A DNA stretch of 35,195 bases, from positions 1 through 35,195 of the forward strand of contig CAYULJ010000003.1 in assembly GCA_964445715.1 (NCBI GenBank), read 5' to 3'. The notes under the pieces are model-generated. The model was not told the origin of the DNA and did no database searches. It was given only the letters and a program-made list of their open reading frames with translations. This document shows, piece after piece, positions 1,426-34,769 of the stretch. Both the position numbers and the translations under genes were made by a program. Origin of the DNA: an uncultured Planctomycetia bacterium (GTDB lineage: Bacteria > Omnitrophota > Gorgyraeia > Gorgyraeales > Gorgyraeaceae). Within the stretch, counting starts at the first letter, position 1; each line of letters begins with the position of its first letter.

Positions 1426-1466
1426 GTTAAGTTCACACTTTAACAATGTTAAAGTGTGAACTTAGG
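1426..1466. repeat. 41-bp palindromic element, family A (TTCACAC subfamily, degenerate ends)
   Basis: gttaagttcacactttaacaatgttaaagtgtgaacttagg; arms complementary. Confidence 0.9.
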
Positions 1467-1478
1467 GATCGATGTTAT

Positions 1479-3197
1479 ATGAAAAAAGAATTAGATGCAC
1501 TACGACATAGTTGTTCTCACGTAATGGCAGATGCCGTGAAGAAGCTTTTCCCAAAGGTAAAGCTTGGCTTTGGCCCTGCTATTGAAGACGGGTTCTACTA
1601 TGATTTTGATTTACAGGATGGCTTTGCCTCAGAAGACCTTCACAAGATAGAAAAGGAGATGGCAAAGATCATAAAGCAAGATCTAGGGTTCAAGAGAGAA
1701 GATATTTCTAAAAAAGAAGCGCTTAAGTTATTCAAAAAATTAAAAGAGCTTTACAAGGTCGAACTTATAAACAACTTAGATTCGGATACAGTTTCTATTT
1801 ATAAGCACGGGAAATTTGTAGATCTTTGTAAAGGCCCGCACGTTGAGTCTACAGGCAGGATCAAGGCATTTAAGCTTCTGAGCATTGCAGGTGCGTATTG
1901 GCATGGCATTGAAACAAACCCAATGTTACAGCGAATATATGGTACTTGCTTTGAAAGCAAAAAGGCATTAGAAGATTTTCTGAGATTAAGGGAAGAAGCG
2001 AAGAAGAGAGATCACAGGAGACTCGGTAAGGATCTGGATTTATTCAGTATTCACGACGATGTCGGGCCTGGCCTTGTTTTTTATCACCCCAACGGCGCTC
2101 TCGTCAGGATGTTGGTGGAAGATTATATAAAAAAGGAACACTTGAAACGCGGCTATCAGATCGTGATGGGGCCTCATATTTTGAAATCCGATATATGGGT
2201 CACCTCCGGACATTACGATTACTACAAAGAAAATATGTACATATTTAAGGTAGAGAAGGATGAATACGTGATCAAGCCAATGAATTGTCCGGCGCATATG
2301 CTTATTTATAAATCAAAGACTAGAAGCTACAGAGATCTACCTATGCGATATTTTGAATTGGGCAATGTGCACCGAAGGGAAAAATCAGGTGTATTGCACG
2401 GACTTCTCAGGGTGCGGGGCTTTACCCAGGATGATGCGCATATATTTTGTCTGCCTGAACAGGTCGAGAAAGAGATTGTCGGCGTGATAGATTTTGTCAT
2501 CGATACGATGAAGGTGTTTGGTTTTATTGATTACAAGATCGATCTTTCCACAAGGCCGCCAAAATTTATTGGAAGCTTTAAGATCTGGGATGAAGCTACA
2601 AATGCGTTGAAAAAAGCGCTCGAGTCCAAAGGCATGACATATGATATCAATGAAGGCGAGGGCGCGTTTTACGGACCAAAAATAGATATCATGGTAAAGG
2701 ATGCATTGGGCAGGCCCTGGCAGTGTGCGACTGTGCAGTGCGACTTTGCACTACCTGAAAGATTTGATTTGGCATATATATCAAAGGACGGGAAAAAAGA
2801 ACGTCCAGTGATGTTGCACCGCGTAATACTGGGCAGCATGGAGAGATTCTTAGGCACCCTTATTGAGCATTATGCAGGCGCATTCCCTGTGTGGCTAAGT
2901 CCTCAGCAGGTCACTGTGATCCCCATTACTGAGAGGGCGCATGATTATGCGGATGAGACTTTGAGTAGATTGCAGGAAGAAGGAATAAGGGCTGAAGTCG
3001 ATAAAAGAAACGAAAAGCTACAGTATAAGATAAGAGAAAAGGAAACACAGAAACTGCCTTATATGTTGATCGTAGGCGACAAGGAAAAAGAAACGGGCAC
3101 GGTTTCGCTTCGAGCGCGAAAAGAAGGAAACCTCGGAAGCATAAAGCTGGAAGAATTTCTTTCTAGGATAAAGGACGAGATCGCAAATAAAAAATAA
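1479..3197 (+). CDS. thrS: threonine--tRNA ligase (no N-terminal TGS domain)
   Basis: ORF 1446-3197. Motifs RHSCSHV (editing domain), KRDHRRLGKDLDLF, PMNCPAH, FYGPKID and the anticodon-binding C-terminus. The first 11 codons (MLKCELRDRCY) are repeat-derived, so the start is moved to ATG 1479. The TAA stop lies in the terminus of the next repeat. Confidence 0.9.
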   Translation: MKKELDALRHSCSHVMADAVKKLFPKVKLGFGPAIEDGFYYDFDLQDGFASEDLHKIEKEMAKIIKQDLGFKREDISKKEALKLFKKLKELYKVELINNLDSDTVSIYKHGKFVDLCKGPHVESTGRIKAFKLLSIAGAYWHGIETNPMLQRIYGTCFESKKALEDFLRLREEAKKRDHRRLGKDLDLFSIHDDVGPGLVFYHPNGALVRMLVEDYIKKEHLKRGYQIVMGPHILKSDIWVTSGHYDYYKENMYIFKVEKDEYVIKPMNCPAHMLIYKSKTRSYRDLPMRYFELGNVHRREKSGVLHGLLRVRGFTQDDAHIFCLPEQVEKEIVGVIDFVIDTMKVFGFIDYKIDLSTRPPKFIGSFKIWDEATNALKKALESKGMTYDINEGEGAFYGPKIDIMVKDALGRPWQCATVQCDFALPERFDLAYISKDGKKERPVMLHRVILGSMERFLGTLIEHYAGAFPVWLSPQQVTVIPITERAHDYADETLSRLQEEGIRAEVDKRNEKLQYKIREKETQKLPYMLIVGDKEKETGTVSLRARKEGNLGSIKLEEFLSRIKDEIANKK

Positions 3198-3233
3198 GTT
3201 CACAATTCAACAATGTTAAAGTGTGAACTTAAA
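3193..3233. repeat. 41-bp palindromic element, family A (TTCACAC subfamily, degenerate)
   Basis: aataagttcacaattcaacaatgttaaagtgtgaacttaaa; its TAA at 3195-3197 is the thrS stop codon. Confidence 0.85.
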
Positions 3234-3249
3234 CGAGGAGGTGGTAGTT

Positions 3250-3780
3250 ATTCCACGGCCGTTACGAGTAAACCAAAAAATAAGGGTGAAAGAAGTAAGA
3301 TTGATAGGGCCTGATGGAGAACAGATGGGCACGGTTCTTACTCAGGATGCGTTACAAAAGGCGCAGGAGCTAGGGCTTGATCTGGTAGAGGTAGCTTTTC
3401 AGGCAAAACCGCCTGTCTGCCGTATAATGGATTATAGCAAGTATAAATACGACCAAGAGAAAAAAGAAAGAGAGGCCCGCAAGCATCAAAAGGTCGTGCA
3501 CCTGAAACAGATAAAGATAAAGCCAAATATAGAAGAGCATGACTATCAGGTTAAGCTTCACCATCTTAAGAGATTTCTGTCAAGAGGGGACAAAGCAAAA
3601 CTTATCATGATCTTTCGCGGGAGAGAGATGAGCCATATTGAGATAGGCAAGAAGGTCGTGGATAGGATGATCTCTGATCTTTCAGACGTGGGGGAGCTGG
3701 AAAAGAACCCTGTCAAAGAAGGAAGGAGCATAATAGTCAACTTTTTGCCAAAATCCAGCGTAGTGAAGGTTAAGAAATAG
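3250..3780 (+). CDS. infC: translation initiation factor IF-3, probable ATT start
   Basis: IF3 motifs KEVRLIGPDGEQMG and KPPVCRIMDYSKYKY. GGAGG at 3237-3241 lies 8 nt before ATT 3250. The track's GTG 3223 start is inside the repeat. AUU starts are a known conserved feature of infC. Confidence 0.85.
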   Translation: MPRPLRVNQKIRVKEVRLIGPDGEQMGTVLTQDALQKAQELGLDLVEVAFQAKPPVCRIMDYSKYKYDQEKKEREARKHQKVVHLKQIKIKPNIEEHDYQVKLHHLKRFLSRGDKAKLIMIFRGREMSHIEIGKKVVDRMISDLSDVGELEKNPVKEGRSIIVNFLPKSSVVKVKK

Positions 3781-3795
3781 ACAAGGAGCGTATAA

Positions 3796-3993
3796 ATGCC
3801 AAAGTTAAAAACAAACAAAAGCGCAAAGAAAAGACTTAAATTAACAAAAAAAGGTAAACTCAAGAGGTTTAAACCAGGGAGAAGGCATCTTTTGACCTCC
3901 AAGTCTTCCAACAGAAAGCGCGGCATGAGAAAAGGTGCGCTTGTCGAAGGAACGGTAGGAAAGATCACAAAGAAGCTTTTGCCTTATGGATAA
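3796..3993 (+). CDS. rpmI: 50S ribosomal protein L35
   Basis: 65 aa, basic, begins MPKLKTNKSAKKR; AAGGAG SD upstream; conserved infC-rpmI-rplT order. Confidence 0.9.
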   Translation: MPKLKTNKSAKKRLKLTKKGKLKRFKPGRRHLLTSKSSNRKRGMRKGALVEGTVGKITKKLLPYG

Positions 3994-4006
3994 GGAGAGG
4001 TAGATT

Positions 4007-4357: not shown

Positions 4358-4360
4358 TCC

Positions 4361-4401
4361 CTTAAGTTTACACTTTAACATTGTTGAAGTGTAAACTTAA
4401 G
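4361..4401. repeat. 41-bp palindromic element, family A (consensus, T..G form on + strand)
   Basis: cttaagtttacactttaacattgttgaagtgtaaacttaag. Confidence 0.95.
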
Positions 4402-4421
4402 CTAGTAAATTGCATATTAAC

Positions 4422-5805: not shown

Positions 5806-5858
5806 CTTAAGTTTACACTTTAACATTGTTAGAGTGTAAGTTAGAGTGTAAACTTAAG
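5806..5858. repeat. family A element with about 12-nt internal duplication of the right arm (53 bp)
   Basis: cttaagtttacactttaacattgtt-agagtgtaagtt-agagtgtaaacttaag. Confidence 0.9.
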
Positions 5859-6671: not shown

Positions 6672-6712
6672 CTTAAGTTTACACTTTAACATTGTTAAAG
6701 TGTAAACTTAAG
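6672..6712. repeat. 41-bp palindromic element, family A (fully symmetric T..A form)
   Basis: cttaagtttacactttaacattgttaaagtgtaaacttaag. Confidence 0.95.
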
Positions 6713-7766: not shown

Positions 7767-7784
7767 GGCACACTTTAGTGTGCC
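7767..7784 (+). other. small hairpin GGCACAC-TTTA-GTGTGCC downstream of pheS
   Basis: 7-bp stem with a 4-nt loop and no following T-run. Its core CACACTTTA..GTGTG resembles the family A core. Confidence 0.5.
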
Positions 7785-10393: not shown

Positions 10394-10399
10394 ATAACT

Positions 10400-10590
10400 A
10401 TCCCTACAGTGTGCGCGTTGGAACAGGGTTTTTTGGACCAACATGATTGATATGGGAGCCTGACTTTAGATGTGGCTGTAAACCTTGTGGTAATAAAAGC
10501 AAGGGAACATTAAACATTTAAGAGGGCACCCACCTTAAAACCGGGTTCAATAAGACATCTTTCAACGCGGCATTAGTGGGGATTTTTTTT
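10400..10590 (+). ncRNA. candidate structured sRNA, 6S RNA-like (ssrS?)
   Basis: About 190 nt with no ORF. The 5' ATCCCTAC pairs with the 3' GTGGGGAT, and CGCGTTG (10414-20) pairs with CAACGCG (10563-69). An apical hairpin CCTTG/CAAGG lies at the midpoint. Ends in T8 (10583-10590). Confidence 0.4.
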
Positions 10591-10598: not shown

Positions 10599-11906
10599 AT
10601 GCCTGATTTATTTGAATCAACGCGAAAAAAGAATAACAAGAACGTTCCTCTCGCTGTAAGGATGCGGCCCAGGACTTTGAGTGAATTTGTGGGGCAGTCG
10701 CATATACTTGGCGAAGGCAAGCTTTTGCGTCGCGCCATAGACGCGGACAGGATTGCTTCACTTATTTTATACGGCCCTCCTGGAACAGGCAAGACTGCTC
10801 TCGCGCATGTTATCGCAGGTATTACAAAGGCGCATTTCCACGAGATAAACGCAGTGATCTCTAATGTTCAGGAGCTAAGAGATGCTATAAGGGCCTCAAA
10901 GGAGCGCGAGAGGGCAAATGATAAAAAGACAATCCTTTTTATAGATGAGATCCATAGGTTCAACAAGGCGCAGCAGGATGTATTGATGCCTGATGTAGAA
11001 AAGGGCAATCCTGTCTTAATAGGCGCGACAACTCACAATCCGTTTTTTTCATTGGTGTCGCCTTTGATTTCCCGCTCAATAGTTTTTGAATTAAAAAAAC
11101 TCTCAAAAGAAGATGTGATAAAGATTTTGAAAAATGCGGCGAAAGATAAAGAGCGAGGGTTAGGAAAGATTTCTGTTAAAATCAGCGAAGATGTTTTGAG
11201 TTTTCTCGCAGAGGCTTCAGACGGTGATGCGAGAAAGGCGCTTAATGCATTAGAGGTAGGAGTTTTGACTACCAGGCCTGACAAAAAGGGCGCGATAGAT
11301 TTTAATATAAAAATAGCAGAAGAATCTATCCAGAAAAAGTCAGTCGTGTATGACAAGGACGAAGACGGGCATTACGATACGATATCCGCATTTATTAAAA
11401 GCATGCGCGGCTCTGATCCTGATGCGGCTCTCTATTGGCTTGCGAAGATGCTCTACGCAGGAGAGGATCCGAGGTTTATCGCGAGGCGCATCGTGATCTG
11501 CGCCGCAGAGGATGTCGGCAACGCAGACCCGCAGGCGATTGTTGTGGCAAATGCAGCATTTCAGGTGTCTGAGTTTGTCGGAATGCCAGAGTGCAGAATC
11601 CCTCTTGCGCAGGCAGTTTGCTACATCGCATGCGCGCCTAAGAGTAACGCCGTCTACCTTGGTATCGACAAGGCGATGAAAGATGTGGAGGAGTCAAGGA
11701 CATTAGAGGTACCGATTTACCTTAAAGACGCGAGTTATCGCGGCGCAAAAAAATTAGATCATGGTCAGGGCTACAAATATGCTCACCAATACGACGGTCA
11801 TTACGTAGAACAGGACTATATCCCTGAAAAAAGAATATATTACGAGCCTACCGATATCGGTTACGAGAAGAAGATAAAAGAGTATCTGGACAGACTCCGA
11901 AAATAA
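10599..11906 (+). CDS. rarA: replication-associated recombination protein A (RarA/MgsA AAA+ ATPase)
   Basis: Walker A GPPGTGKT, Walker B/sensor FIDEIHRFNK, MgsA C-terminal domain. The TAA stop (11904-11906) lies in the repeat terminus. Confidence 0.9.
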   Translation: MPDLFESTRKKNNKNVPLAVRMRPRTLSEFVGQSHILGEGKLLRRAIDADRIASLILYGPPGTGKTALAHVIAGITKAHFHEINAVISNVQELRDAIRASKERERANDKKTILFIDEIHRFNKAQQDVLMPDVEKGNPVLIGATTHNPFFSLVSPLISRSIVFELKKLSKEDVIKILKNAAKDKERGLGKISVKISEDVLSFLAEASDGDARKALNALEVGVLTTRPDKKGAIDFNIKIAEESIQKKSVVYDKDEDGHYDTISAFIKSMRGSDPDAALYWLAKMLYAGEDPRFIARRIVICAAEDVGNADPQAIVVANAAFQVSEFVGMPECRIPLAQAVCYIACAPKSNAVYLGIDKAMKDVEESRTLEVPIYLKDASYRGAKKLDHGQGYKYAHQYDGHYVEQDYIPEKRIYYEPTDIGYEKKIKEYLDRLRK

Positions 11907-11942
11907 GTTCACACTTTAACAACGTTAAAGTGTGGACTTAAG
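11902..11942. repeat. 41-bp palindromic element, family A (TTCACAC subfamily, degenerate)
   Basis: aataagttcacactttaacaacgttaaagtgtggacttaag. Confidence 0.85.
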
Positions 11943-12954: not shown

Positions 12955-12955
12955 T

Positions 12956-12996
12956 CTTAAGTTTACACTTCAACAATGTTAAAGTGTAAACTTAAG
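12956..12996. repeat. 41-bp palindromic element, family A (consensus, C..A form on + strand)
   Basis: cttaagtttacacttcaacaatgttaaagtgtaaacttaag, the exact reverse complement of the 4361 copy. Confidence 0.95.
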
Positions 12997-13092
12997 CCGC
13001 GTATGACTATTTTTTGCTGTTATAAAATAGTGAAATGTCTGCTTTTAAAGCGGGGTATGGTAATATGCTTTCTTTAACTATGGAGGTTAAGC

Positions 13093-13696
13093 ATGCAGGC
13101 ATATTATCCAAAACCCGCACTGGAGCGGGCAATGAAGGTGCAGGCCTGATCAAAAGACAACCCAAGCGCGATACACACCGCAGGAGGCGTCCCCGTAAGC
13201 CCCTTCCGGGCATGATGCTTCACATGGATGGTTCTCCTCATGACTGGTTCAAGGATTCATCAGAATATACAATAGTTACTCTTTATGATGATGCCAATAA
13301 CTATCTTTACGATATAGAGATTGTAAGAGAGGAAGACTCTTTTACATGCATGAACATGATAAAGACCCTCGTCGAGAAGAAAGGCATATTTTGCTCTCTC
13401 TATACAGACAGAGCCAGTCACTTCTTCTTAACAAAAAAAGCGGGAGACGGGGTAGCAAAAGACTCTTTAACTCAGATAGGTAGAGCGCTAGGGGAACTTG
13501 GAATACATCATATCCCTAGTTATTCTCCTCAGGCAAGAGGCAGATCTGAAAGATTAAACCAGACTCTTCAGGGAAGAATTCCACAAGAATTAAGACTTCG
13601 AGACATAAAGACAATAGATGAAGCAAACGGATACCTAAAAGAAAAAGGACTACTACTACATTTAACCAAAAGCGGACATCTTGACATGTTAGCTAC
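13093..13696 (+). pseudogene. decayed DDE (rve-fold) transposase, ISNCY-like; N-terminal DNA-binding region and C-terminus missing
   Basis: DDE-like residues in LHMDGSPHDWF, LYTDRASHF and SPQARGRSERLNQTLQ. No HTH domain, only a 19-codon out-of-frame stub (13093-13149, MQAYYPKPALERAMKVQA). The frame runs out into a half repeat. Confidence 0.65.
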
Positions 13697-13712
13697 AAAG
13701 TGTGAACTTAAG
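13697..13712. repeat. family A half-element (right arm only)
   Basis: aaagtgtgaacttaag with no left arm nearby; abuts the transposase remnant. Confidence 0.8.
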
Positions 13713-13750
13713 CTTGCATGTCGCGATTCTATATGGTATGCTTTGTAAAA

Positions 13751-14347
13751 ATGAAAACTGCAATAAAATTAGTCCAAATTTTTATCACGATTCAAATTGT
13801 ATCCGCAAACCCTGCCTATGGTGTTCAAATAACTGACAGAAATGAATACCTCTATGATGTACGGGATGATGACGGAAATATTTACAGAAATCGCCTCTCG
13901 ATCCATAAAAAATTAGATACCTACGACATAGACATGTCAGGTTTTGGAGAAGTCCAGTGGAATTTCAAGTTAAATGACTGGGAAAAATTAATGTTAGGCG
14001 TGGAGGCCGAGAAAAAACTATTCAGATACTTCTATATAGGTCAATCTTTTCAATTCATATCAGGTCAGATGCTAGACTATATGGTCTTTGACGCGGATTC
14101 TAGATCCATAGACACTACTACAAAAATAGTTTTCAGCTATCCCCTGCTCGAATACCTAGACTTTAAGCTTTTTGAGGAATATTCCATAAATCTCGAGGAA
14201 GGAAGAGATGAATGCAATGAAGTGGGCGCTGAGATTATCTACAACCTAAAGGATTCTTGCTCTTTAGGGGTGGGTTGGCGCCATACTGACAGGATTCACA
14301 ATTTTGACACTGACTACGTAACCTCGTCTATTAAATTACGCTTTTAA
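13751..14347 (+). CDS. hypothetical protein, putative outer-membrane beta-barrel
   Basis: Signal-like N-terminus MKTAIKLVQIFITIQIVSANPAYG, alternating aromatic/hydrophilic pattern, C-terminal ...SSIKLRF (terminal Phe). ATG 13751 is preferred to 13718. Confidence 0.5.
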   Translation: MKTAIKLVQIFITIQIVSANPAYGVQITDRNEYLYDVRDDDGNIYRNRLSIHKKLDTYDIDMSGFGEVQWNFKLNDWEKLMLGVEAEKKLFRYFYIGQSFQFISGQMLDYMVFDADSRSIDTTTKIVFSYPLLEYLDFKLFEEYSINLEEGRDECNEVGAEIIYNLKDSCSLGVGWRHTDRIHNFDTDYVTSSIKLRF

Positions 14348-15457
14348 TCCTGAGAGATACGCCTCGCAACTTCTCTTTGTCTCTGAAATATTATCTCCGC
14401 CAAATTTTTCCAACGCCGCATTTGCTATGACAAAAGCACACACTGCCTCAGCCACGACTCCTGCGCTCGGCACAGCGCACACATCAGACCTTTCTGTAAC
14501 TGCCTTTTTGGCCTCTTTGGTCGCGATGTCTATTGAATTCAACCCCTTCATCAATGTGCTGATCGGTTTCATGTAGCCGCGGATAATTATATTCTCGCCG
14601 TTCGAGACTCCGCCTTCAATGCCGCCTGCGTTATTGGTCTTTCTGTATATGCCTTTGGGCTTGGAATAAAATATCTCGTCGTGCACTTTTGATCCTAATT
14701 TTTTAACTGCCTCGATACCTTCTCCGATCTCAACTGCCTTCACTGCCGGTATAGACATAATGGCAGAAGCAATCATTGCGTCAAGTCTCCGGTCACTCTC
14801 TACATAACTCCCAAGACCTGGCGGCACACCTTCTAGAATCACCTCGAATATGCCCCCTAAAGTATCCTTTTTTTCTTTTGCACTATCTATCTCCTCTATC
14901 ATCAATTTCTCAGAAGCCTTATCAGCGCAATTCAATTTAGACTTAGTCGTATTTTTAATTATCTCGTCAAAACTTAAGCTAGAGGTATGGGCCTTAACGC
15001 CGCCGATCATGACAACGTGGCTTAACATGCGCATCTTTAATTCTTTTAGAAAAATCTTACAGACCGCACCCAGCGCAACCCTCATGGCTGTCTCTCTTGC
15101 AGAGGCCCTCTCAAGGACAGAACGCGCTTCCTTGAAGCCGTATTTCAAAATCCCTGCAAGGTCAGCATGTCCTGGTCTGGGATTTTTGACATCAGGCAAT
15201 TTATCTATGGAGAAATCCTTGTTCTCTATGAGAATGGAAATGGGGCTCCCTATGGTCACGCCACCCCTCAGACCTGAAACTATCTCGGCGCGGTCCTCTT
15301 CTATATTCATCCTGTCGCCTCTGCCATAGCCTTGTTGGCGGCGCTTAAGTTCTTCGTCTATAAAGTCTGCGTCGACTTTTAATGCAGCTGGCATGCCTTC
15401 TAGGATACCAATTAATGCTTCACCATGAGATTCACCTGCAGTCAAATATCGTAACAT
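14336..15457 (-). CDS. aroC: chorismate synthase
   Basis: 373 aa. MLRYLTAGESHGEAL N-terminus, GRGDRMNIEED and RSDVCAVPSAGVV motifs. Confidence 0.92.
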   Translation of the reverse strand: MLRYLTAGESHGEALIGILEGMPAALKVDADFIDEELKRRQQGYGRGDRMNIEEDRAEIVSGLRGGVTIGSPISILIENKDFSIDKLPDVKNPRPGHADLAGILKYGFKEARSVLERASARETAMRVALGAVCKIFLKELKMRMLSHVVMIGGVKAHTSSLSFDEIIKNTTKSKLNCADKASEKLMIEEIDSAKEKKDTLGGIFEVILEGVPPGLGSYVESDRRLDAMIASAIMSIPAVKAVEIGEGIEAVKKLGSKVHDEIFYSKPKGIYRKTNNAGGIEGGVSNGENIIIRGYMKPISTLMKGLNSIDIATKEAKKAVTERSDVCAVPSAGVVAEAVCAFVIANAALEKFGGDNISETKRSCEAYLSGLKA

Positions 15458-15460
15458 AAT

Positions 15461-16231
15461 CTACCTCCCCATTATCCACTTTAATATACTCTGGCCCCAA
15501 ATCATAGCAACGAAGCTGGCCATTGCGATACAAGGCCCATAAGGAATAATATCCTGTTTTTTCCTAAATTTCAAATAAATCCCGGCCGGGGAGCCGAAAA
15601 AAGGAGCGAGAAAGAAAATAAGGATCGCCATTTTCCAGCCCAAAAAAGCCCCCAGCATGGCCATGAGTTTCACATCTCCTCCGCCCATGCTTTCTTTTTT
15701 AAACGCCAGGCTTCCTAAAAATCCAGTCAAATACATCAGTGCCCCGCCTGTAAACACTCCTAATAATGAAGTTATAACTGACGCCTTCCATGTAATGGTA
15801 TGATGGAGCGACGGCACTAAGGCACTGATAAAAATTCCAAAAAATAAACCTCCGATACTAAATCGATCAGGTATAATCTGAAATTCAAAATCGATAAAAG
15901 TTATTGCGATTAAAACAGCTGTCAATAAGCTGTATATATAAAACTTGCCGGAAAATCCAAAATTTAAAAATAGGGTCAAAAACGCCAACGCGCTTATGAG
16001 CTCAACAATAAAATAGCGGGGCGAAATCTTTTGTTTGCAGGATCTGCATTTACCTCTAAGCAGCAGGTAGCTCAAAAAAGGTATATTGTCGTACCACGCT
16101 ATTGTCTTTTTGCAATGCACGCATCTCGAGCGGGAAAAGCCAATGGATTCATTGCGCGGTATCCTGTATATACATACGTTCAGGAAACTCCCGATCACTG
16201 CACCAAAGATAAATATAAATATATGTGTCAT
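15461..16231 (-). CDS. pilD: prepilin peptidase (A24 family)
   Basis: N-terminal CxxC...CxxC (CVHCKK...CRSCKQ), polytopic, GGGDVKL active-site-like motif. Confidence 0.88.
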   Translation of the reverse strand: MTHIFIFIFGAVIGSFLNVCIYRIPRNESIGFSRSRCVHCKKTIAWYDNIPFLSYLLLRGKCRSCKQKISPRYFIVELISALAFLTLFLNFGFSGKFYIYSLLTAVLIAITFIDFEFQIIPDRFSIGGLFFGIFISALVPSLHHTITWKASVITSLLGVFTGGALMYLTGFLGSLAFKKESMGGGDVKLMAMLGAFLGWKMAILIFFLAPFFGSPAGIYLKFRKKQDIIPYGPCIAMASFVAMIWGQSILKWIMGR

Positions 16232-16241: not shown

Positions 16242-16282
16242 CTTAAGTTTACACTTTAACATTGTTGAAGTGTAAACTTAAG
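16242..16282. repeat. 41-bp palindromic element, family A (consensus, T..G form on + strand)
   Basis: cttaagtttacactttaacattgttgaagtgtaaacttaag; overlaps the last 8 codons and the stop of aroE. Confidence 0.95.
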
Positions 16283-17207: not shown

Positions 17208-17247
17208 CTTAACTTTACACTTTAACATTGTTAAAGTGTAAAGTTAG
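17208..17247. repeat. family A element, AACTTT/AAAGTT subfamily
   Basis: cttaactttacactttaacattgttaaagtgtaaagttag; contains the leuA stop (17244-17246). Confidence 0.9.
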
Positions 17248-18791
17248 AGGTCGAGTTCTTTCTGTTGAGGCTTTGTTTTTCGCGATCGTGCGAAAAAGAG
17301 CCTGTTTGTTGCGTTCAGGTATGCCTTTGCGCTGGCCTCGATTATATCCGTAGAGGCTCCTCTTCCTGAAACTTCTTCGCCCTTGCCAGGTTTTATCCTG
17401 ACAGAAACCTCGCCCAGGGCGTCCTTGCCTCTTGTTATAGACTTTAGAGAATAATCCAGAAGCGCACAACTGAGACCTGTTATCTTATCAATGGCTTTGT
17501 AGCACGCATCCACAGGCCCGTCGCCAGTAGAAGATTTTTTAAGCATCTTCGCGCCTTTTTTTAGCACCACTGTGGCACGCGGCACGATCTTACTGCCGCT
17601 TACTATGCTTAGATCTTCCAGTCTATATGTCTCCGGTATAGAGATAATTTCGTCCTCGACAATAGTCAACAGATCCTCGTCAAATATCTCCTTCTTTTTA
17701 TCTGAGAGATTCTTAAATCGCTTGAATGCCTTCAAAAGATCCTTTTTGTTAAGTTCGAACCCTAGCTTCTTCAATCTCTCGGAAAATGCGTGCTTGCCTG
17801 AATGTTTCCCGAGTACAAGCCGCGTCTCGCCGAAGCCCACATCCTCTGGTTTCATGATCTCATAGGTTGTGCGCTTCTTCAGGATGCCGTCCTGGTGCAC
17901 ACCAGCCTCGTGGCTGAATGCATTGCGGCCTACTATTGCCTTGTTCGGCTGCACTACAATGCCTGTGAGTTTACTCACCAAGCGGCTCGCCTTATAAAGC
18001 TCCTTTGTATTTATCGACGTGGAAGATGCAAAAATATCCTTTCGCGTGTCCAACGCCATTACAATTTCTTCCAAGGACGCATTGCCTGCCCTCTCGCCAA
18101 TGCCGTTGACAGTGCATTCTATTTGCTCAGCGCCGTTCTCGATAGCTGCGAGAGAATTGCTGACGCCGAGCCCGAGGTCATTGTGGCAATGCACGCTCAG
18201 TATGGCCTTGTTCGAATTAGGGACTTTGTTTTTTATTGTGCCTATGAGCGAACCGAATTCGATCGGGATTGCGTAGCCGACTGTGTCAGGGATATTCACT
18301 GTCTTCGCGCCTGCGGATATGACTGCTTCGACCACGCGACACAGAAAATCCTTTTCAGAGCGCGAAGCATCTTCCGGCGAAAATTCGACATCATCGCAAA
18401 ACTTACGCGCGTATTCCACAGCCCACGCTGCCTGTCTCAATATTTCGCTCTCTGCCTTTTGTAACTTATACTGCATGTGGATCTTGGATGTTGCCAAAAA
18501 TACATGGATGCGCGGCTTTTTCGCTTTTTTGACAGCGCGGGCACACGTCTCTATATCCTGCTTTGTGGCCCTTGCAAGGCCGCAGATACTCGGCCCTTTG
18601 ATTTCAGAGGCGACTTTGCTGACTGCATCAAAATCCCCTTTTGAGGCAATGGGAAAACCCGCCTCAATCACGTCAACGCCGAGCCTTGCCAATTGCCTTG
18701 CAATGTCGATCTTTGCCTTTATATCGAGGCTTGCTCCCGGCGACTGCTCGCCGTCTCTCAGGGTTGTGTCGAATATTATTATTCTCTTCAT
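17244..18791 (-). CDS. leuA: 2-isopropylmalate synthase
   Basis: [29 protein letters not shown] and a LeuA dimer/regulatory C-terminal domain. The track start at 18821 ([10 protein letters not shown]) is repeat-derived, so ATG 18791 is used. Confidence 0.88.
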
Positions 18792-18800: not shown

Positions 18801-18841
18801 CTTAAGTTTACACTTTAACATTGTTGAAGTGTAAACTTAAG
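18801..18841. repeat. 41-bp palindromic element, family A (consensus, T..G form)
   Basis: cttaagtttacactttaacattgttgaagtgtaaacttaag. Confidence 0.95.
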
Positions 18842-20435: not shown

Positions 20436-20529
20436 CTTAAGTTCAAAAATAGGGACAGACACCTATTTTTTATGACCTATTTTTAGAAACTAATAAAAAT
20501 AGGTGTCTGTCCCTATTTTTGAACTTAAG
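20436..20529. repeat. 94-bp composite palindrome, family B (family A termini plus a different core)
   Basis: cttaagttcaaaaatagggacagacacctattttt...aaaaataggtgtctgtccctatttttgaacttaag; 35-nt arms perfectly complementary. Contains the ilvB stop (20525-20527). Confidence 0.95.
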
Positions 20530-22212: not shown

Positions 22213-22253
22213 TTTAAGTTTACACTTCAACAATGTTAAAGTGTAAACTTAAG
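22213..22253. repeat. 41-bp palindromic element, family A (C..A form; first base T)
   Basis: tttaagtttacacttcaacaatgttaaagtgtaaacttaag. Confidence 0.95.
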
Positions 22254-23990: not shown

Positions 23991-24100
23991 CTTAAGTTTA
24001 CCAAAAATACAAAAATAGGGACAGACACCTATTTTTTCTTATTTTCTAAAATAGATTACGAAAAAAATAGGTGTCTGTCCCTATTTTTGGTAAACTTAAG
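23991..24100. repeat. 110-bp composite palindrome, family B (11-nt family A termini)
   Basis: cttaagtttaccaaaaatacaaaaatagggacagacacctattttt...aaaaataggtgtctgtccctatttttggtaaacttaag. The left arm carries an extra 8-nt (aaaaatac) tandem duplication. Confidence 0.95.
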
Positions 24101-25739: not shown

Positions 25740-25780
25740 CTTAAGTTTACACTTCAACAATGTTAAAGTGTAAACTTAAG
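25740..25780. repeat. 41-bp palindromic element, family A (consensus, C..A form)
   Basis: cttaagtttacacttcaacaatgttaaagtgtaaacttaag; contains the tsaB stop (25776-25778). Confidence 0.95.
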
Positions 25781-26480
25781 GCTTTGAACTTGACTTTACC
25801 TGGCAATATTTCGAATATATATACAAAGGCTTAAGCTTGCCGAGGTCTTGTTTTCTGCGCCTTTTTATATTTTTAAGGCTCAATTTTATAAGACTGCTAG
25901 CCTTTGGATACCAATATTTCTCATCTAAAAAAATTGCGTTTCGGCAAACCCTATGTATTTTTTCTTTGTAAAGATTTATACCGTCACCTAAAAATATTGC
26001 AGGGCCTTTGATCTTTTTCATGAGATCATCTATAGTCAATAAAAGATAAGCCGAAACCTTGGAAATATCATTATTTTTTTTCTTATATATCGCAGAATAC
26101 ACCTGGCTTCTCTTTGCATCGATCACCGGCACTATAGCTATCTCTTCGCCATCCGCATTCATTGCCAATGCATCAATGCTTGCCACGCCAATACATGGCT
26201 TCCTTGTAGCAATACCAAACCCTTTTATGGAACTCACGCCTATACGTAGACCTGTAAACGAGCCCGGTCCGAGACCGACGACAAACGCGTCAATATCACC
26301 AATGTTCGAATTGCATTTCTCCAAGAGCTCCTTGACTTTCGGCACCAAGAGAGCCGAGTGCTGCCTGTCAAGCAGATGCGACTCCTCTGAAATAATAAAA
26401 TTATCCTCTCCCAGTGCTATATTTAAAAATTTAGAACTCGTATCAATCGCCAGAATTTTCATTTTTTGCGCTTTTGTCAT
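25776..26480 (-). CDS. tsaB: tRNA t6A biosynthesis protein TsaB
   Basis: KILAIDTSS N-terminus and GPGSFTGLRIG motif. The start is either ATG 26480 (inside the GC hairpin) or ATG 26462 (MKILAID). Confidence 0.85.
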   Translation of the reverse strand: MTKAQKMKILAIDTSSKFLNIALGEDNFIISEESHLLDRQHSALLVPKVKELLEKCNSNIGDIDAFVVGLGPGSFTGLRIGVSSIKGFGIATRKPCIGVASIDALAMNADGEEIAIVPVIDAKRSQVYSAIYKKKNNDISKVSAYLLLTIDDLMKKIKGPAIFLGDGINLYKEKIHRVCRNAIFLDEKYWYPKASSLIKLSLKNIKRRRKQDLGKLKPLYIYSKYCQVKSSSKP

Positions 26481-26499
26481 TCCCGCGAAAGCGGGAATC
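26476..26499. repeat. GC-rich hairpin element, family C (GTCATTCCCGC-GAAA-GCGGGAATC)
   Basis: 8-bp stem ATTCCCGC/GCGGGAAT with a GAAA loop. Directly abuts the family A copy at 26500. A second copy is at 34777. Confidence 0.85.
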
Positions 26500-26540
26500 C
26501 TTAAGTTTACACTTCAACAATGTTGAAGTGTAAACTTAAG
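26500..26540. repeat. 41-bp palindromic element, family A (C..G fully paired form)
   Basis: cttaagtttacacttcaacaatgttgaagtgtaaacttaag; contains the tsaE stop (26536-26538). Confidence 0.95.
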
Positions 26541-26943: not shown

Positions 26944-26951
26944 GATCCCGC

Positions 26952-26990
26952 CTAACTTTACACTTTAACGTTGTTGAAATGTAAAGTTAG
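26952..26990. repeat. family A element, AACTTT/AAAGTT subfamily (39 bp, diverged)
   Basis: ctaactttacactttaacgttgttgaaatgtaaagttag; contains the thiL stop (26987-26989). Confidence 0.85.
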
Positions 26991-27889
26991 AAGTGTGAAT
27001 AGCCTGAGGCTTTTATCTTTTGTTCACTTCTGTTCTTCTTTATTATACAAAATCCTTTGCGCCTGCCGCAAATCCTCCCGATCCTGGAAAGACGCGTTCT
27101 AAACGGCCATGTCTTTTCTAATTTAAGAGCTGCTTTTTGCGACAATGTAAAGACCAGCTCAAAATCCTCGCCTTCTCTTACAGCTGCGCTGAAACTCCTC
27201 ACATTCTTGGACAATGGCACACTTTTCTCGCAAACCACTGCGCCTACTTCACTCGCCTCCAGTATATGGCCCAGGTCAGCTAATAGGCCGTCAGAGACGT
27301 CTATCATGGAATTTATTTTGAAATTTTTTACCAAAAAACGAGATTCCTTAAGGCGCGGGGTGAAATTCAAATGCTTGCCTTCTGAGGCACCGCCAATGTT
27401 CCCTGTAACAAATATCGCATCGCCTACTTTGGCGTTACTACGCAAGACCAATTGTTTTTTTTCAACGCTGCCCAAAACTGCGATGTTCACGATTATCTTT
27501 TTTGAAGCAACCGTATCCCCGCCTACTAAATCAACGCCAAACCTCTTAGCCACATCTCTCATCCCTTTATACAGCACCTCTACATATCTAACATTGAGAG
27601 ATGGTGGCACGCCCAAAGAAACCAATGCAAACTCAGGCACTCCTCCCATAGCCGCAATATCGCTTATGTTAGAAGAAATGCATTTTTTCCCGACCAGGCT
27701 CGCCTCTGCTCGTCTATAAAAATGCGCGCCTTCCAAAAGCATGTCAGAGGTAAACAGAAGATATTTATCTTTCGTATATCTCAAAACAGCTGCATCATCT
27801 CCTATGCCATTTGCTACTTTCCTGGAGAGCTTTACGCGCGCCGAAATCCTCTTTATTAAATTAAATTCTCCTAAATCTCTTAATATCAT
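26987..27889 (-). CDS. thiL: thiamine-monophosphate kinase
   Basis: GEFNLIKRI, GIGDDAAV, FTSDMLLEGAHF and GGDT motifs of the PurM-like ThiL fold. Confidence 0.88.
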   Translation of the reverse strand: MILRDLGEFNLIKRISARVKLSRKVANGIGDDAAVLRYTKDKYLLFTSDMLLEGAHFYRRAEASLVGKKCISSNISDIAAMGGVPEFALVSLGVPPSLNVRYVEVLYKGMRDVAKRFGVDLVGGDTVASKKIIVNIAVLGSVEKKQLVLRSNAKVGDAIFVTGNIGGASEGKHLNFTPRLKESRFLVKNFKINSMIDVSDGLLADLGHILEASEVGAVVCEKSVPLSKNVRSFSAAVREGEDFELVFTLSQKAALKLEKTWPFRTRLSRIGRICGRRKGFCIIKKNRSEQKIKASGYSHF

Positions 27890-28978: not shown

Positions 28979-29019
28979 CTTAAGTTGACACTTCAACAAT
29001 GTTAAAGTGTCAACTTAAG
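28979..29019. repeat. 41-bp palindromic element, family A (TTGACAC/GTGTCAA subfamily)
   Basis: cttaagttgacacttcaacaatgttaaagtgtcaacttaag. Confidence 0.95.
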
Positions 29020-31183: not shown

Positions 31184-31224
31184 CTTAAGTTCACACTTTA
31201 ACATTGTCGAAATGTGATCTTAAG
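31184..31224. repeat. 41-bp family A element (TTCACAC subfamily, right arm decayed)
   Basis: cttaagttcacactttaacattgtcgaaatgtgatcttaag; contains the tatD stop (31220-31222). Confidence 0.85.
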
Positions 31225-33138: not shown

Positions 33139-33152
33139 ATCATCACTCCCAC

Positions 33153-33193
33153 CTTAAGTTTACACTTTAACATTGTTGAAGTGTAAACTTAAG
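33153..33193. repeat. 41-bp palindromic element, family A (consensus, T..G form)
   Basis: cttaagtttacactttaacattgttgaagtgtaaacttaag; contains the metG stop (33189-33191). Confidence 0.95.
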
Positions 33194-34718
33194 ATTCTAT
33201 TCTTGGAAAGAGGGGTTTTCCTTTATTGATCTTTGTTCCTGATTTTGCCGTGTCCCAAGATAAATCATTTAAACTTTTTTTGCCCGCCTTTAAACCAAGC
33301 TGGTGCGTCATTTTTTCAGAAGTCGTTGGCAAAAATGGCCACAGCGCCACTGATATAATCCTCAAGATTTCATAAAGATCATACATCATATCCTTAAGAT
33401 CGTCTTCTTTGTTTTCTTTTGAAAGCTTCCATGGCGCCTTTTGCTCTATGAATTTGTTGGCCATATTTATCAATTGCCAAATAGCGCCGAGCGCCTGGCT
33501 AAAATCTATTTTGTCCATCGCCTTAGAGATCTCGGATTTTAAATTCTTTGCTTTGTCAATAAGCGGAGCTGTAAACTCGTCTGCTGTTCTAATGTCTCGT
33601 CTCTTGGGAATCTTTCCAGAAAAATATTTCTCTATCATGGACAATGTCCTGTGCAAAAGATTCCCCAGGTCATTGGCGAGATCGCTATTGATCCTAGATA
33701 TAAGCGCAGTCTCGGAAAAAGAACCATCTGCGCCAAACGGCACTTCTCTTAATAAGAAAAACCTATACGCGTCCACGCCAAACTTATCGATCATCTCAAG
33801 CGGATTTACTATATTACCTTTGGACTTGGACATCTTGTCCTCGCCTATCTTCCACCAACCATGCGCAAACACTGTCTTGGGTAGTTCGAGTCCGATGGCG
33901 CGAAGCATGATAGGCCAATAAACAGTATGCGGCCTCAAGATATCCTTTCCTATCATATGCACGTCAGCTGGCCAGAATCTTTTGAATCTCTTTGGGTCAT
34001 CGCCATAACCACACAAGCTAATATAATTTATGAGTGCGTCAAACCAGACATACGTCACATGGTCTTCACTAAAAGGTATCTTAACACCCCACGAAAGCCT
34101 GGACTTGGGCCTTGAGATACACAAGTCATTCAACGGATTCTTAAGAAAACTCAGGATCTCGTTTCTTCTTATAACAGGCAATATAAAATCTTCGTGCGAA
34201 TTAATATATTCCACCAGCCAATTTTGATATTTCGAAAGCCTGAAAAAAAAATTCTTTTCTTTTATGTGCTCGACCTGTCTCTTGCAGTCAGGGCAATTGC
34301 CATCTAGCAGCTGGCCCTTGGTCCAAAAACTCTCACACGGCGTGCAATACCACCCACTGTATTCGCCTTCATACAGGTCGCCGTTTTTATACAATATCTC
34401 CAATATCTTTTTCACGACATCTTCATGTCTCTTTTCTGTCGTGCGAATGAAATCGTCGTACGAAATGCCTAGCTTCTCCCACAGGTCTTTAAATCTCGGA
34501 ACCACTGTATCCACGAATGCTCGAGGCTCCATACCTTTTTCACTGGCTGCCTCTTTTATCTTCTGGCCATGCTCGTCAGTGCCTGTAGAAAACAATACCT
34601 CTGTGCCTGCAAGCCGTTTGAACCTCGCGAGCGCGTCACACGCGATATTAGTATACGAATGCCCGATATGAGGATTGCCATTAACATAATATAGAGGTGT
34701 CGTTATATAAAATTTCAT
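33189..34718 (-). CDS. metG: methionine--tRNA ligase (short form, no C-terminal tRNA-binding domain)
   Basis: HIGH-type NGNPHIGH, KMSKS, and zinc knuckle CTPC...CPDC; 509 aa. Confidence 0.92.
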   Translation of the reverse strand: MKFYITTPLYYVNGNPHIGHSYTNIACDALARFKRLAGTEVLFSTGTDEHGQKIKEAASEKGMEPRAFVDTVVPRFKDLWEKLGISYDDFIRTTEKRHEDVVKKILEILYKNGDLYEGEYSGWYCTPCESFWTKGQLLDGNCPDCKRQVEHIKEKNFFFRLSKYQNWLVEYINSHEDFILPVIRRNEILSFLKNPLNDLCISRPKSRLSWGVKIPFSEDHVTYVWFDALINYISLCGYGDDPKRFKRFWPADVHMIGKDILRPHTVYWPIMLRAIGLELPKTVFAHGWWKIGEDKMSKSKGNIVNPLEMIDKFGVDAYRFFLLREVPFGADGSFSETALISRINSDLANDLGNLLHRTLSMIEKYFSGKIPKRRDIRTADEFTAPLIDKAKNLKSEISKAMDKIDFSQALGAIWQLINMANKFIEQKAPWKLSKENKEDDLKDMMYDLYEILRIISVALWPFLPTTSEKMTHQLGLKAGKKSLNDLSWDTAKSGTKINKGKPLFPRIES

Positions 34719-34728
34719 AAAATTATCG

Positions 34729-34769
34729 CTTAAGTTTACACTTCAACAATGTTAAAGTGTAAACTTAAG
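34729..34769. repeat. 41-bp palindromic element, family A (consensus, C..A form)
   Basis: cttaagtttacacttcaacaatgttaaagtgtaaacttaag. Confidence 0.95.

Follow-up and report, generated by a model that had tools for sequence, protein, structure and literature searches.

The short palindrome that recurs between the genes of the 35,195-nt stretch of Candidatus Omnitrophota DNA analyzed here (the window) is best explained as a mobile, non-autonomous, REP/MITE-like DNA repeat that forms a hairpin, a reading to which we assign a probability of roughly 0.7. The window holds 20 copies, 13 at no more than two mismatches to the consensus and seven more diverged, along with two half copies and two longer composites with the same ends (Table 1); together these make up 3.0% of its DNA. 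A pattern search with the consensus of the preliminary description, allowing up to three mismatches, recovered 13 copies (11 exact, one with one mismatch and one with two), against none in 100 shuffles of the window. The other seven starts listed there are recognizable copies with four to seven mismatches and 14–17 of 19 Watson–Crick stem pairs, and the count of 20 full copies stands; among the starts themselves, the copy at 5806 proved to be 53 bp long (5806–5858), and the correct register of the one placed at 26952 begins at 26951. Eight copies share one 41-mer at 41/41, as had been stated, five in one orientation (4361, 16242, 18801, 19882, and 33153) and three as its exact reverse complement (12956, 25740, and 34729). 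Conservation extends over a 37-bp unit, TAA-S-TTTACA...TGTAAA-S-TTA, which reaches 41 bp in the dominant subfamily of the window and includes a TAA in each of the six reading frames. An assembly artefact is excluded, since the same sequences reappear in independent assemblies: part of the window has 100% matches in two independent Logan assemblies, and the family of a sister genome is identical across six.

Table 1. Copies, fragments, and composites of the palindrome in the window (A and B, subfamilies).
Position	Element	Location	Remark
1426–1466	copy, TTCACA/TGTGAA	tRNA-Val/thrS gap	no copy here in sister genome
3193–3233	copy, TTCACA/TGTGAA	thrS/infC	TAA 3195–3197 is thrS stop; sister copy at same position
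4361–4401	master copy A (41/41)	rplT/trkH	
5806–5858	53-bp copy, 12-bp internal duplication	trkH/trkA gap	
6672–6712	copy, perfect 19-bp stem	trkA/pheS	site empty in sister genome
10294–10334	perfect copy	3' of pheT, upstream of 6S RNA gene	
11902–11942	diverged copy, TTCACA/TGTGGA		TAA 11904–11906 is stop codon of upstream gene
12956–12996	master copy A, reverse	edge of synteny break	
13698–13712	right-arm half copy, broken at loop	adjoins ISNCY remnant	orthologue is full sister copy (L003 ~16125)
16242–16282	master copy A	aroE/pilD	
17208–17248	B copy (AACTTTACA)	leuA/aroE	leuA stop codon within copy
18801–18841	master copy A	ilvC/leuA	genes overlap in outgroup L078
19882–19922	master copy A	ilvN/ilvC	3-nt gap in outgroups L078, L079
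20436–20529	94-bp composite	ilvB/ilvN	CTTAAGTTC ends, inner inverted repeat AAAAATAGGGACAGACACCTATTTTT
22213–22253	copy, one mismatch	ilvD/ilvB	
23991–24100	110-bp composite	greA/ilvD	CTTAAGTTTAC ends, inner inverted repeat as in 20436–20529
25740–25780	master copy A, reverse	tsaB/alr	
26500–26540	perfect copy	tsaE/tsaB	20-nt gene overlap in all three outgroups
26951–26991	B copy	thiL/tsaE	position, orientation, subfamily as in sister genome
28955–28970	arm fragment	adjoins copy at 28979	
28979–29019	copy, compensated pair TTGACA/TGTCAA	DUF362/mtnA-like gap	
31184–31224	diverged copy, 5 mismatches	between tatD-like and CPBP genes	
33153–33193	master copy A	metG/cysteine desulfurase	sister: B, same position, opposite orientation
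34729–34769	master copy A, reverse	ricT/metG	

Copies occupy 23 of the 24 protein-gene junctions of the window longer than ~40 bp, in line with the earlier claim that nearly every such gap is filled; the sole exception, pheS/7803, has only a short hairpin at 7767–7784. The sister species (~82–87% DNA identity to the window) was represented by the MAG GCA_964415355.1, in which at least 243 copies were counted in ~540 kb, about a third of that genome, and none of them lies inside a credible ORF. About half of the sister gene junctions are occupied, with copies in both orientations: 46–59% of co-directional and divergent junctions (17 copies at the latter) and 35% of convergent ones (11 copies). 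Where a copy is missing, co-directional and convergent neighbors lie close together (median gaps 11, 7, and −11.5 nt), and the median gap between divergent neighbors is 81 nt. In 109 of the 219 co-directional sister copies the upstream gene stops at the TAA at positions 3–5 of the element, and stops of its other frames are used in only 13; the translation signals of the downstream gene (ribosome-binding site and start codon) usually come 7–15 nt past the unit.

Since TTTACA and TAAACT-like hexamers occur on both strands, with a start codon within ~10–15 nt downstream, and three copies pass a loose terminator scan, the palindrome could be a transcription signal, either a U-tract-less terminator or a promoter acting in both directions (TTTACA, 19 nt, TAAACT/TAAAGT) before nearly every gene. 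However, 0 copies pass a sigma-70 scan at 16–18 nt spacing, the spacer being 19 nt, and no T-run follows the copies, a point already made for the window. Occupancy is moreover similar at co-directional, divergent, and convergent junctions, and copies are found inside operons whose genes overlap in relatives; we regard this explanation as the least probable of those considered.

Each genome contains one master sequence surrounded by a cloud of near-copies. Identical 37-mers account for 9 of 20 copies in the window and, with a different master sequence, for 114 of 243 in the sister genome. As so many copies are identical although the genomes are only 82–87% identical, the copies are younger than the split between the two or have been homogenized. 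The copies at 17208 and 26951 belong to the sister subfamily B, AACTTTACA...TGTAAAGTT, and a third subfamily, TTCACA...TGTGAA, comprises those at 1426, 3193, 11902, and 31184 and the half copy at 13698. In the two composites of the window, CTTAAGTT ends enclose a different inverted repeat; composites that share their ends and differ in their interiors exist in two to three copies each. Several subfamilies are present together within one genome and are distinguished by changes in both stem arms: 94.6% of stem cells form pairs, 5 of the 17 pairs are changed on both sides, and the observed covariation score was reached by 0 of 500 shuffles.

This covariation bears on a DNA-level site for a dimeric protein (a nucleoid protein, regulator, uptake receptor, or recombinase), whose preference would have spread and homogenized the palindrome. 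The symmetry of the two half-sites suits such a protein, and the density of ~1 copy per 1.7–2.2 kb and the lineage-specific consensus resemble the ~1 per 1–2 kb and the "dialects" of the uptake sequences of Neisseriaceae and Pasteurellaceae (DUS/USS), among which DUS often form inverted pairs after genes. However, DUS/USS are 9–12 bp, sequence-defined, and common inside genes, whereas the palindrome is strictly intergenic and its arms change so as to keep pairing rather than sequence, in several subfamilies per genome; the uptake or protein-binding signal suggested earlier is accordingly not supported. Integron attC sites are likewise single-strand hairpin sites, used in recombination and placed after genes, and the subfamily B ends, (G)CCTAAC...GTTAGG(C), fit the attC core motifs (RYYYAAC...GTTRRRY). 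The AAC/GTT core is nevertheless absent from subfamily A of the window, the 41-bp unit is shorter than attC sites (at least ~55 bp), neither extrahelical bases nor an unpaired spacer interrupts its stem, and the flanks are syntenic, conserved housekeeping operons rather than cassettes. The gene tables of the Pfam-annotated loci, which define the scope of the integrase check, contain no intI and no integrase gene save one Xer-like integrase in outgroup L077. A protein-binding site is thus considered very unlikely.

Comparison with relatives indicates that the copies are insertions, since syntenic, more distant relatives have tight or overlapping junctions without the element. In the outgroups L077, L078, and L079, gene order is kept and tsaE/tsaB, ilvB/ilvN, ilvC/leuA, and aroE/pilD overlap or abut; none of the three carries the palindrome at the junctions it occupies in the window and the sister genome. 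Two related palindromes occur in L079, at junctions other than these. Between the window and the sister genome, presence differs at four junctions and orientation at 4 of 15 shared ones, and at many shared junctions the copies are offset by a few nucleotides or are of different subfamilies. In a relative whose IlvC is 95% identical, ilvB/ilvN is filled by another subfamily and ilvN/ilvC has no copy. A majority of junctions carry copies in both sister species, and the position agrees to the nucleotide for ~8 of 19 shared copies; such filling also fits old, retained copies homogenized by gene conversion, and the retention of shared copies could mean present host use. The copy at 26951 was probably inherited from a common ancestor, as its position, orientation, and subfamily agree with those in the sister genome. 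Polymorphic sites carry extra indels, and no clean empty/filled pair in this comparison shows a target-site duplication; transposition is therefore deduced from population structure and not from a footprint. The actively spreading REP/MITE-like element, one of three options raised in the preliminary description with no choice made among them, is supported by the master-copy populations, the two orientations, the subfamilies, and the multiplied composite derivatives, as well as by the presence/absence differences between close relatives and the absence from more distant syntenic ones.

The shared positions could alternatively reflect an intercistronic RNA hairpin used by the host for RNase III-type processing, end protection, or translation uncoupling, its uniformity being due to gene conversion. 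The regular layout (stop codon, hairpin, then ribosome-binding site and start codon), the covarying arms, and the stable predicted RNA fold of −17 to −22 kcal/mol point in this direction, as does the unrelated hairpin held at ilvD/ilvB and leuA/aroE by every relative examined. However, the same operons in the outgroups have overlapping genes and no hairpin at most such junctions, and copies also lie at divergent junctions, where no transcript is shared. The two orientations of the window master copy are 4 kcal/mol apart in RNA fold, and no bias toward the more stable one was observed (122 versus 97 overall; 4 versus 5 for the master copy). Additionally, the master sequence keeps a mismatch in 114 identical copies, and half copies and composites are tolerated. 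This reading is thus judged unlikely, and the mRNA punctuation hairpin proposed earlier survives only as a probable side effect.

As to the mobile repeat itself, the palindrome has no match in Rfam or phage records and a single weak partial match in plasmid records (25 nt, E = 0.5), and the literature searched yielded no description, consistent with the earlier statement that it is not a described family. Only three species with the element are among the matches listed in a scan of GTDB species representatives. At one copy per 1.7–2.2 kb and about half of all junctions, its density is presumably several times above published REP copy numbers. The closest known systems are the REP/REPIN repeats with RAYT (TnpA-REP) of Enterobacteria, Pseudomonas, and Stenotrophomonas, which share extragenic palindromes of 20–40 bp in hundreds of copies, a master sequence with near-copies, compensatory changes that keep the hairpin, and presence inside operons (PMC3733652, PMC2817692, PMC8049555). 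REPIN populations are built around a master sequence (PMC8049555), and GTAG REP termini have been reported to donate stop codons to the neighboring ORF (PMC3733652). In contrast to classical REPs, the palindrome lacks the GTAG or CGTC tag, has its own ends, TAA(G/C)...(C/G)TTA, is mostly one near-perfect hairpin with a 3-nt loop rather than REP doublets or BIMEs, and belongs to a different phylum; it is also smaller than typical MITEs. The Correia elements (CREE/NEMIS) of Neisseria and TA-target MITEs are likewise non-autonomous inverted repeats with no known transposase in the genome, and they share TA flanks, ~2–3% of the genome, intergenic placement, co-transcription, and a hairpin fold open to RNase III binding (PMC2649163, PMC2229807, PMC10969869). 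Correia elements, however, span 100–155 bp and have a core of their own, an IHF site, and ends that form promoters, whereas the palindrome consists of two arms and 3 nt, shows no sequence similarity to them, and has no demonstrated TA duplication.

No RAYT/IS200-like ORF, multi-copy IS, or other mobilizing gene was found in the ~610 kb examined, which weighs against mobility; the sister genome was covered to roughly one third, and the genome of the window over 35 kb. As observed earlier, neither a RAYT nor an IS200 gene lies in the window, but a truncated ISNCY transposase remnant is present at 13035–13748.

We propose that the repeat multiplied within one small lineage of uncultured Omnitrophota until most tolerable sites, i.e., short intergenic spaces, were occupied. 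Each new copy would be made from the whole unit, since the C·A mismatch and T·G wobble of the master are passed on intact, and the single-stranded hairpin may be the form recognized or selected, because subfamilies differ on both arms with pairing kept. The mobilizing enzyme presumably acts in trans and is most likely a single-copy reader of hairpin structure, i.e., a RAYT/IS200-like HUH transposase, and less likely an IS630-type DDE transposase that targets TA. Copies would survive chiefly where no gene is broken, and as the unit brings its own stop codon, these sites may extend to the last bases of a gene or to the region where two genes overlap. Recombination between copies could produce chimeric arms and swap subfamily or orientation in place. 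Inside operons, the inserted unit would be passively transcribed as a hairpin without terminating transcription, and any effect on mRNA stability or processing would be a by-product. On this reading, the palindrome is a new, exceptionally dense family within an already known class, the small mobile hairpin repeats (REP/MITE-like), and not a new kind of signal.

The palindrome in the gene gaps of the window is best explained as a mobile repeat of the REP/MITE kind, non-autonomous and hairpin-forming. Its anatomy was defined on 265 copies from the window and ~540 kb of a sister genome, the MAG GCA_964415355.1, with at least 243 copies in the latter and 20 in the 35-kb window. The element measures 37–41 bp, and the conserved unit corresponds to positions 3–39 of the 41-bp consensus of the preliminary description, i.e., TAA-(G/C)-TTTACA...TGTAAA-(C/G)-TTA; the predicted RNA fold comprises a stem of 17–19 bp and a 3-nt loop (−16.6 to −22.1 kcal/mol). 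Positions 1–2 and 40–41 are strongly conserved only in subfamily A, the dominant type of the window (CT...AG), and weakly in the sister genome (C, C/T ... G/A, G).

When the window was searched with the 41-bp consensus, allowing three mismatches, 13 matches were obtained (11 exact, one with one and one with two mismatches), against none expected in shuffled sequence. The remaining seven of the 20 starts listed in the preliminary description are copies too, with four to seven mismatches to the consensus and 14–17 of 19 stem pairs intact; the copy placed at 26952 is in register from 26951. The eight identical 41-mers described there were likewise recovered, five of them in one orientation and the other three exactly reverse-complemented. 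In half copies, the break falls at the loop or close to it, and copies, half copies and composites together amount to 1,067 bp, or 3.0% of the window. By the ORF map of the window, 23 of the 24 junctions between protein genes that exceed ~40 bp carry a copy, in agreement with the earlier claim, the single exception being the junction between pheS and ORF 7803, which has a short hairpin only. Mechanical ORF calling runs four genes into the palindrome, whereas their true starts lie a few codons downstream, past a ribosome-binding site; gene callers can thus extend ORFs into the repeat and create false N-termini such as MLKCELK.

Coordinates of repeat variants and other features of the window
Feature	Position (strand)	Remarks
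Subfamily B copies	17208, 26951	AACTTTACA...TGTAAAGTT
Third, compensated variant	1426, 3193, 11902, 31184; half copy 13698	TTCACA...TGTGAA
Longer composites	20436-20529, 23991-24100	CTTAAGTT ends as in the other copies; inner inverted repeat unlike theirs, common to both composites
Copy of 53 bp	5806	Length due to a 12-bp internal duplication
Short hairpin between pheS and 7803	7767-7784	
ORF starts called within the palindrome (thrS, pheS, leuA, CPBP protease)	1446, 6692, 18821, 31204	False N-termini MLKCELK, LLKCKLK, MLKCKLK
Second small palindrome	26479-26498, 34780-34799	ATTCCCG-N6-CGGGAAT, within GTCATTCCCG...CGGGAATC; abuts copy 26500 directly; 10 nt from copy 34729
ISNCY-family transposase remnant	13035-13748 (+)	Profile positions 91-271 of 368; truncated
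Synteny break with the sister genome	between 12995 and 13697	9135-12995 matches contig 3, 13697 onwards contig 1; bounded by full copy 12956 and a loop-broken half copy (to 13712)
6S RNA gene	10398-10586 (+)	Rfam RF00013, 91 bits; in the 310-nt gap after pheT, ~60 nt downstream of copy 10294
Free-standing LAGLIDADG_3 homing-endonuclease ORF	406-1071 (+)	E = 2.9e-14; flanked by tRNA-Cys (319-393) and tRNA-Leu (1082-1169)

The subfamilies differ by changes in both arms of the stem, with G-C replaced by C-G at positions 6/36, T-A by A-T at 8/34, and T-A by C-G or G-C at 9/33. Across 67 distinct sequences, 94.6% of the stem cells are paired and both bases vary in five of the 17 stem pairs, and the observed covariation score was matched by none of 500 shuffles. 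Judged from this variation, the data point to base pairing, in a single-stranded hairpin of DNA or RNA, as the constrained property rather than a double-stranded recognition sequence; symmetrising repair inside the palindrome could contribute to the two-arm changes. About 25 of the 265 copies are chimeras that combine an arm of subfamily A with one of subfamily B, and one chimera exists in ten identical copies. Thus, copies recombine with one another, and pairing at that position is not essential. DNA uptake sequences are short, sequence-defined motifs, frequent inside genes and read by a matching receptor. In this usual sense the palindrome is not one, given that no copy lies inside a credible ORF in the window or the ~540 kb of sister genome and that variation keeps the pairing, not the sequence; the protein-binding or uptake reading offered earlier is thereby weakened.

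With one copy per 1.7–2.2 kb, the element occupies about half of all junctions. Of the copies with a called gene on each side, 220 lie between co-directional, 17 between divergent and 11 between convergent genes. In the loci examined, occupancy is 46–59% for co-directional and divergent junctions and 35% for convergent ones. Junctions without a copy leave little room where genes are co-directional or convergent (median gaps of 11, 7 and −11.5 nt), and at empty divergent junctions the median is 81 nt. The presence of copies at all junction types speaks against both a promoter and a terminator. A spacing of 19 nt separates the TTTACA and TAAACT-like hexamers, and a scan for sigma-70-type promoters with 16–18-nt spacing accepts none of the copies. 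An intrinsic terminator has a G+C-rich stem ahead of a U-tract and lies where transcription units end. Here, G-C accounts for only five of the 19 pairs in the stem, a T-run is missing after the copies, as already stated in the preliminary description, and copies occur inside operons and at divergent junctions, all of which excludes a canonical intrinsic terminator.

Read directly from the sequence, TAA occurs at positions 3–5, 16–18 (or 25–27) and 32–34, and the unit therefore leaves no frame open on either strand. The TAA at positions 3–5 serves the upstream gene as its stop codon in 109 of 219 co-directional copies, while in-element stops of the other frames end only 13 genes. The next start codon mostly lies 7–15 nt past the unit, leaving space for little beyond a ribosome-binding site. 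Orientation, as given by the asymmetric loop, shows no significant bias relative to transcription (122 versus 97) or to replication.

The repeat is biological and genome-wide within this lineage, since independent assemblies reproduce the copies and the sister genome is full of matches. Window positions 13670–16190, including the half copy, are found at 100% identity in two independent Logan assemblies, and six independent assemblies of the syntenic region of the sister genome are identical, elements included, which disposes of the concern that the copies might be confined to this contig as an artefact. The exact subfamily A pattern had no match in the GTDB species representatives, JGI metagenomes or IMG/VR; only the looser core pattern TTYACAYTTYAACRWYGTTRAARTGTRAA revealed the sister family, matching at least 68 stretches in the GTDB species representatives, and among the matches listed, 66 are in GCA_964415355.1 and one each in two other MAGs. 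With gathering as well as with permissive thresholds, Rfam gave no match to the copies apart from chance matches to microRNA models, and the palindrome is not a known RNA family. No meaningful match was found in plasmid and phage collections, and nothing relevant was found in the literature on palindromes or repeats of Omnitrophota.

The closest proteins to the IlvC of the window are labelled Candidatus Omnitrophota or Omnitrophica, and the IlvC of the sister genome is 97% identical to it. Although GCA_964415355.1 is titled "uncultured Planctomycetia bacterium", its gene order is common with Omnitrophota MAGs and the closest named homologues of its type of IlvC are all labelled Omnitrophota or Omnitrophica; by these sequence comparisons, the Planctomycetia label looks wrong. 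Short-read assemblies of the window organism and its closest relatives (L001, L002, L080, L081) consist of contigs of only 1.4–2.7 kb or contain runs of N, one of which in L080 falls at the element-bearing junction of ilvC and leuA. So dense and uniform a repeat may be the reason why short-read assembly yields short contigs for this organism and some of its close relatives; the Logan contig ends that were checked lie ~50 nt or more from the nearest copy and do not coincide with copies.

Evidence for multiplication comes from the uniformity of the copies. In the sister genome, 114 of 243 copies are one identical 37-mer, in either orientation, whose C.A mismatch and T.G wobble are inherited intact; in the window, nine of 20 copies share another master. 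Since the two genomes are only 82–87% identical in DNA, and copies as old as their split would have diverged, these copies are younger than the split or have been homogenised. Composites with the same ends and different interiors occur in two to three copies per type, namely AAAAATAGGGACAGACACCTATTTTT in the window and, in the sister genome, one type with a 35-nt insert and one with a ~150-nt insert in the loop. The latter insert, present in two copies (L035, 5044–5237, and L070, 790–984; 91% identical), is highly structured and without an Rfam match, and may represent a small RNA or a further mobile element nested there.

Insertion is revealed by comparison of orthologous junctions. Three more distant Omnitrophota, L077, L078 and L079 (Candidatus Gorgyraea atricola), whose IlvC is 86–89% identical, served as outgroups and keep the order DUF362 – mtnA-like – thiL – tsaE – tsaB – alr – greA – ilvD – ilvB – ilvN – ilvC – leuA – aroE – pilD – aroC. 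In all three, tsaE and tsaB overlap by 20 nt; in L078, ilvB/ilvN, ilvC/leuA and aroE/pilD overlap and the gap between ilvN and ilvC is 3 nt; and outgroup gaps, where present, contain unrelated hairpins. The junctions filled in both the window and the sister genome were therefore opened by insertion. Two junctions are filled in the window only (1426, 6672) and two in the sister genome only, between pilD and aroC (a 3-nt gap in the window) and between CPBP and DUF362 (a 4-nt overlap in the window). As in MITEs, which are non-autonomous derivatives of DDE transposons, the arms form inverted repeats, and presence differs at four orthologous junctions, where the outgroups carry no copy. A relative with 95% IlvC identity carries a further subfamily, AAGTATACA, between ilvB and ilvN, and its junction between ilvN and ilvC is empty. 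Where both genomes have a copy, that of the window is mostly of subfamily A and that of the sister genome of B, the exact position is shifted by a few to ~20 nt at roughly half of these junctions, and the orientation differs at four of 15; the copy between thiL and tsaE is alike in subfamily, position and orientation and looks inherited. These masters, subfamilies, insertion polymorphisms and tight outgroup junctions bear out the first reading of the preliminary description, a spreading REP/MITE-like element.

The main rival, still a live one, casts the hairpin as intercistronic RNA punctuation in the service of the host, for which the regular stop–hairpin–ribosome-binding-site layout and the high occupancy common to both sister species argue; however, the outgroups do without the hairpin, the better-pairing orientation is not favoured, and copies lie at divergent junctions too, which weakens this reading as well. 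In a further, unlikely reading, the lineage would have come to rely on the repeat as a prefabricated module between cistrons, which would supply the upstream stop codon, a 17–19-bp hairpin as the site of cutting or stabilisation of the polycistronic RNA, and a G-rich 3′ edge seeding the next ribosome-binding site. Hairpin punctuation would then have replaced translational coupling via gene overlap genome-wide, in a manner likened to the tRNA punctuation of mitochondrial transcripts, and uniformity would stem from conversion off a master copy or from a domesticated single-copy enzyme.

For the mobile hairpin repeat, the whole unit would be copied each time, since the mismatches of the master are inherited, and a trans-acting enzyme would recognise the hairpin. 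Copies would persist mainly where no gene is broken, and insertion into the final codons of a gene, or where two genes overlap, may be tolerated because the unit closes all six frames; the upstream gene would be re-terminated at the TAA of the unit, and the downstream gene would start after it. The excess of stops at positions 3–5 could arise from insertion into the TA of stop codons, from selection against translating into the hairpin, or from deletion of the spacer until the TAA of the unit takes over. Since the original stop was not always TAA or TAG, with tsaE ending in TGA in all three outgroups, stop-codon targeting cannot alone explain the excess.

Searches by motif and tblastn, with approximate IS200/YafM queries, found no RAYT or IS200 gene in ~610 kb, with about a third of the sister genome and 35 kb of the window genome covered, and self-BLAST of the sister loci (about a third of the genome) found no multi-copy IS. 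The only repeat obtained was a conserved coding stretch of 158 bp common to two genes, probably paralogues, which we take, by eye, to be release factors. No solo left and right ends bracket an ORF in the incomplete genomes read. In RAYT systems, one Y1 HUH transposase gene is present, with the repeats on both sides of it. Over the DNA covered, finding no IS in multiple copies is easier to reconcile with a RAYT-like enzyme encoded once than with an active IS; an IS ending in TAAGTTTACAC or TAACTTTACAC, if present, would speak for a MITE origin. TA is invariant at positions 3–4 and 38–39 and the flanks favour C-TA...TA-G, which corresponds to the CTAG target of IS630-type elements. TA is also part of the palindrome. 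Among polymorphic sites and tandem copies, no empty/filled pair was clean enough for a target-site duplication to be read.

The earlier statement that the window contains no mobilising gene holds for RAYT and IS200, but a truncated ISNCY-family transposase remnant is present, at the synteny break with the sister genome. Gene orientation and GC skew switch at this break, and the cumulative skew peaks at ~12–14 kb. The remnant was rejected as parent element: its protein is truncated at both ends, the adjoining half copy has a full copy as its orthologue in the sister genome, no copy of the remnant occurs in the sister loci, and it is cut by a rearrangement rather than bounded by ends of its own.

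Small palindromic repeats have been studied mostly in Proteobacteria. Like REPs and REPINs, the present family has many copies, master sequences, a conserved structure, members inside operons and units that donate stop codons. REPs are imperfect extragenic palindromes of ~20–40 bp with more than 100 copies per genome; the present element is likewise short, extragenic and numerous, its hairpin kept by compensatory changes. Donation of stop codons by the termini has been reported for GTAG REPs (PMC3733652), and shared traits of REP populations are also described in PMC2817692 and PMC8049555. However, two defining REP features fail. The position matrix shows no conserved GTAG or CGTC tag in the unit or up to 10 nt beyond it, the ends being TAA(G/C)...(C/G)TTA, whereas REPs are defined by GT(A/G)G or CGTC at one end (PMC3733652); and the doublets of REPINs and BIMEs are lacking, with only eight pairs of copies less than 90 nt apart among 265 and all others single hairpins. 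The literature does recognise palindromic repeat families that lack such a tag (PMC3733652). Correia-type MITEs are alike in TA flanks, lack of a known transposase, genome share and co-transcribed hairpins (PMC2649163, PMC2229807); the present element is far smaller.

The subfamily B ends CCTAAC...GTTAGG resemble the attC core motifs of integrons. An attC site lies at the 3′ end of a mobile promoterless cassette next to intI and is a folded strand with extrahelical bases and an unpaired spacer. Here, the flanking genes are syntenic housekeeping genes common with the outgroups, not cassettes, the stem is nearly perfect, and subfamily A lacks AAC/GTT cores; attC was thus rejected.

Other palindromes accompany the family or occur in its relatives. 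The second small palindrome of the window, the form of which recalls the neisserial dRS3 repeat, has counterparts in hairpins flanking sister-genome copies (e.g., L009, L012). More distant Omnitrophota carry other dispersed palindromes (L077, 10991–11079; L079, 14516–14715, 13551–13744 and 16360–16431); members of one family, GGACRTGACTTACG...CGTAAGTCAYGTCC, occupy junctions that differ between two genomes, and Gorgyraea atricola has two hairpins with ends related to the present family, TAACTTTACATTT...AAATGTAAAGTTA and CTAACCTGACACTTTAAG.... Such occurrences suggest that palindromic repeats may be common across the phylum.

The family is new and its kind is known; it has multiplied from master copies, is polymorphic in insertion, is restricted to intergenic positions, donates stop codons and conserves its pairing, and it stands out by its density, its minimal, near-perfect hairpin and its host phylum. 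Its hosts belong to an uncultured phylum of small genomes, and it illustrates the extent that such a repeat can reach: operons that overlap in relatives have been pried apart, about half of the junctions are occupied, and about half of the upstream genes have adopted its TAA. The element is a striking case, though not a new kind, and two sister species with different masters at the same junctions allow a tractable comparison, a natural experiment that sets turnover of intragenomic replicators against their conversion.
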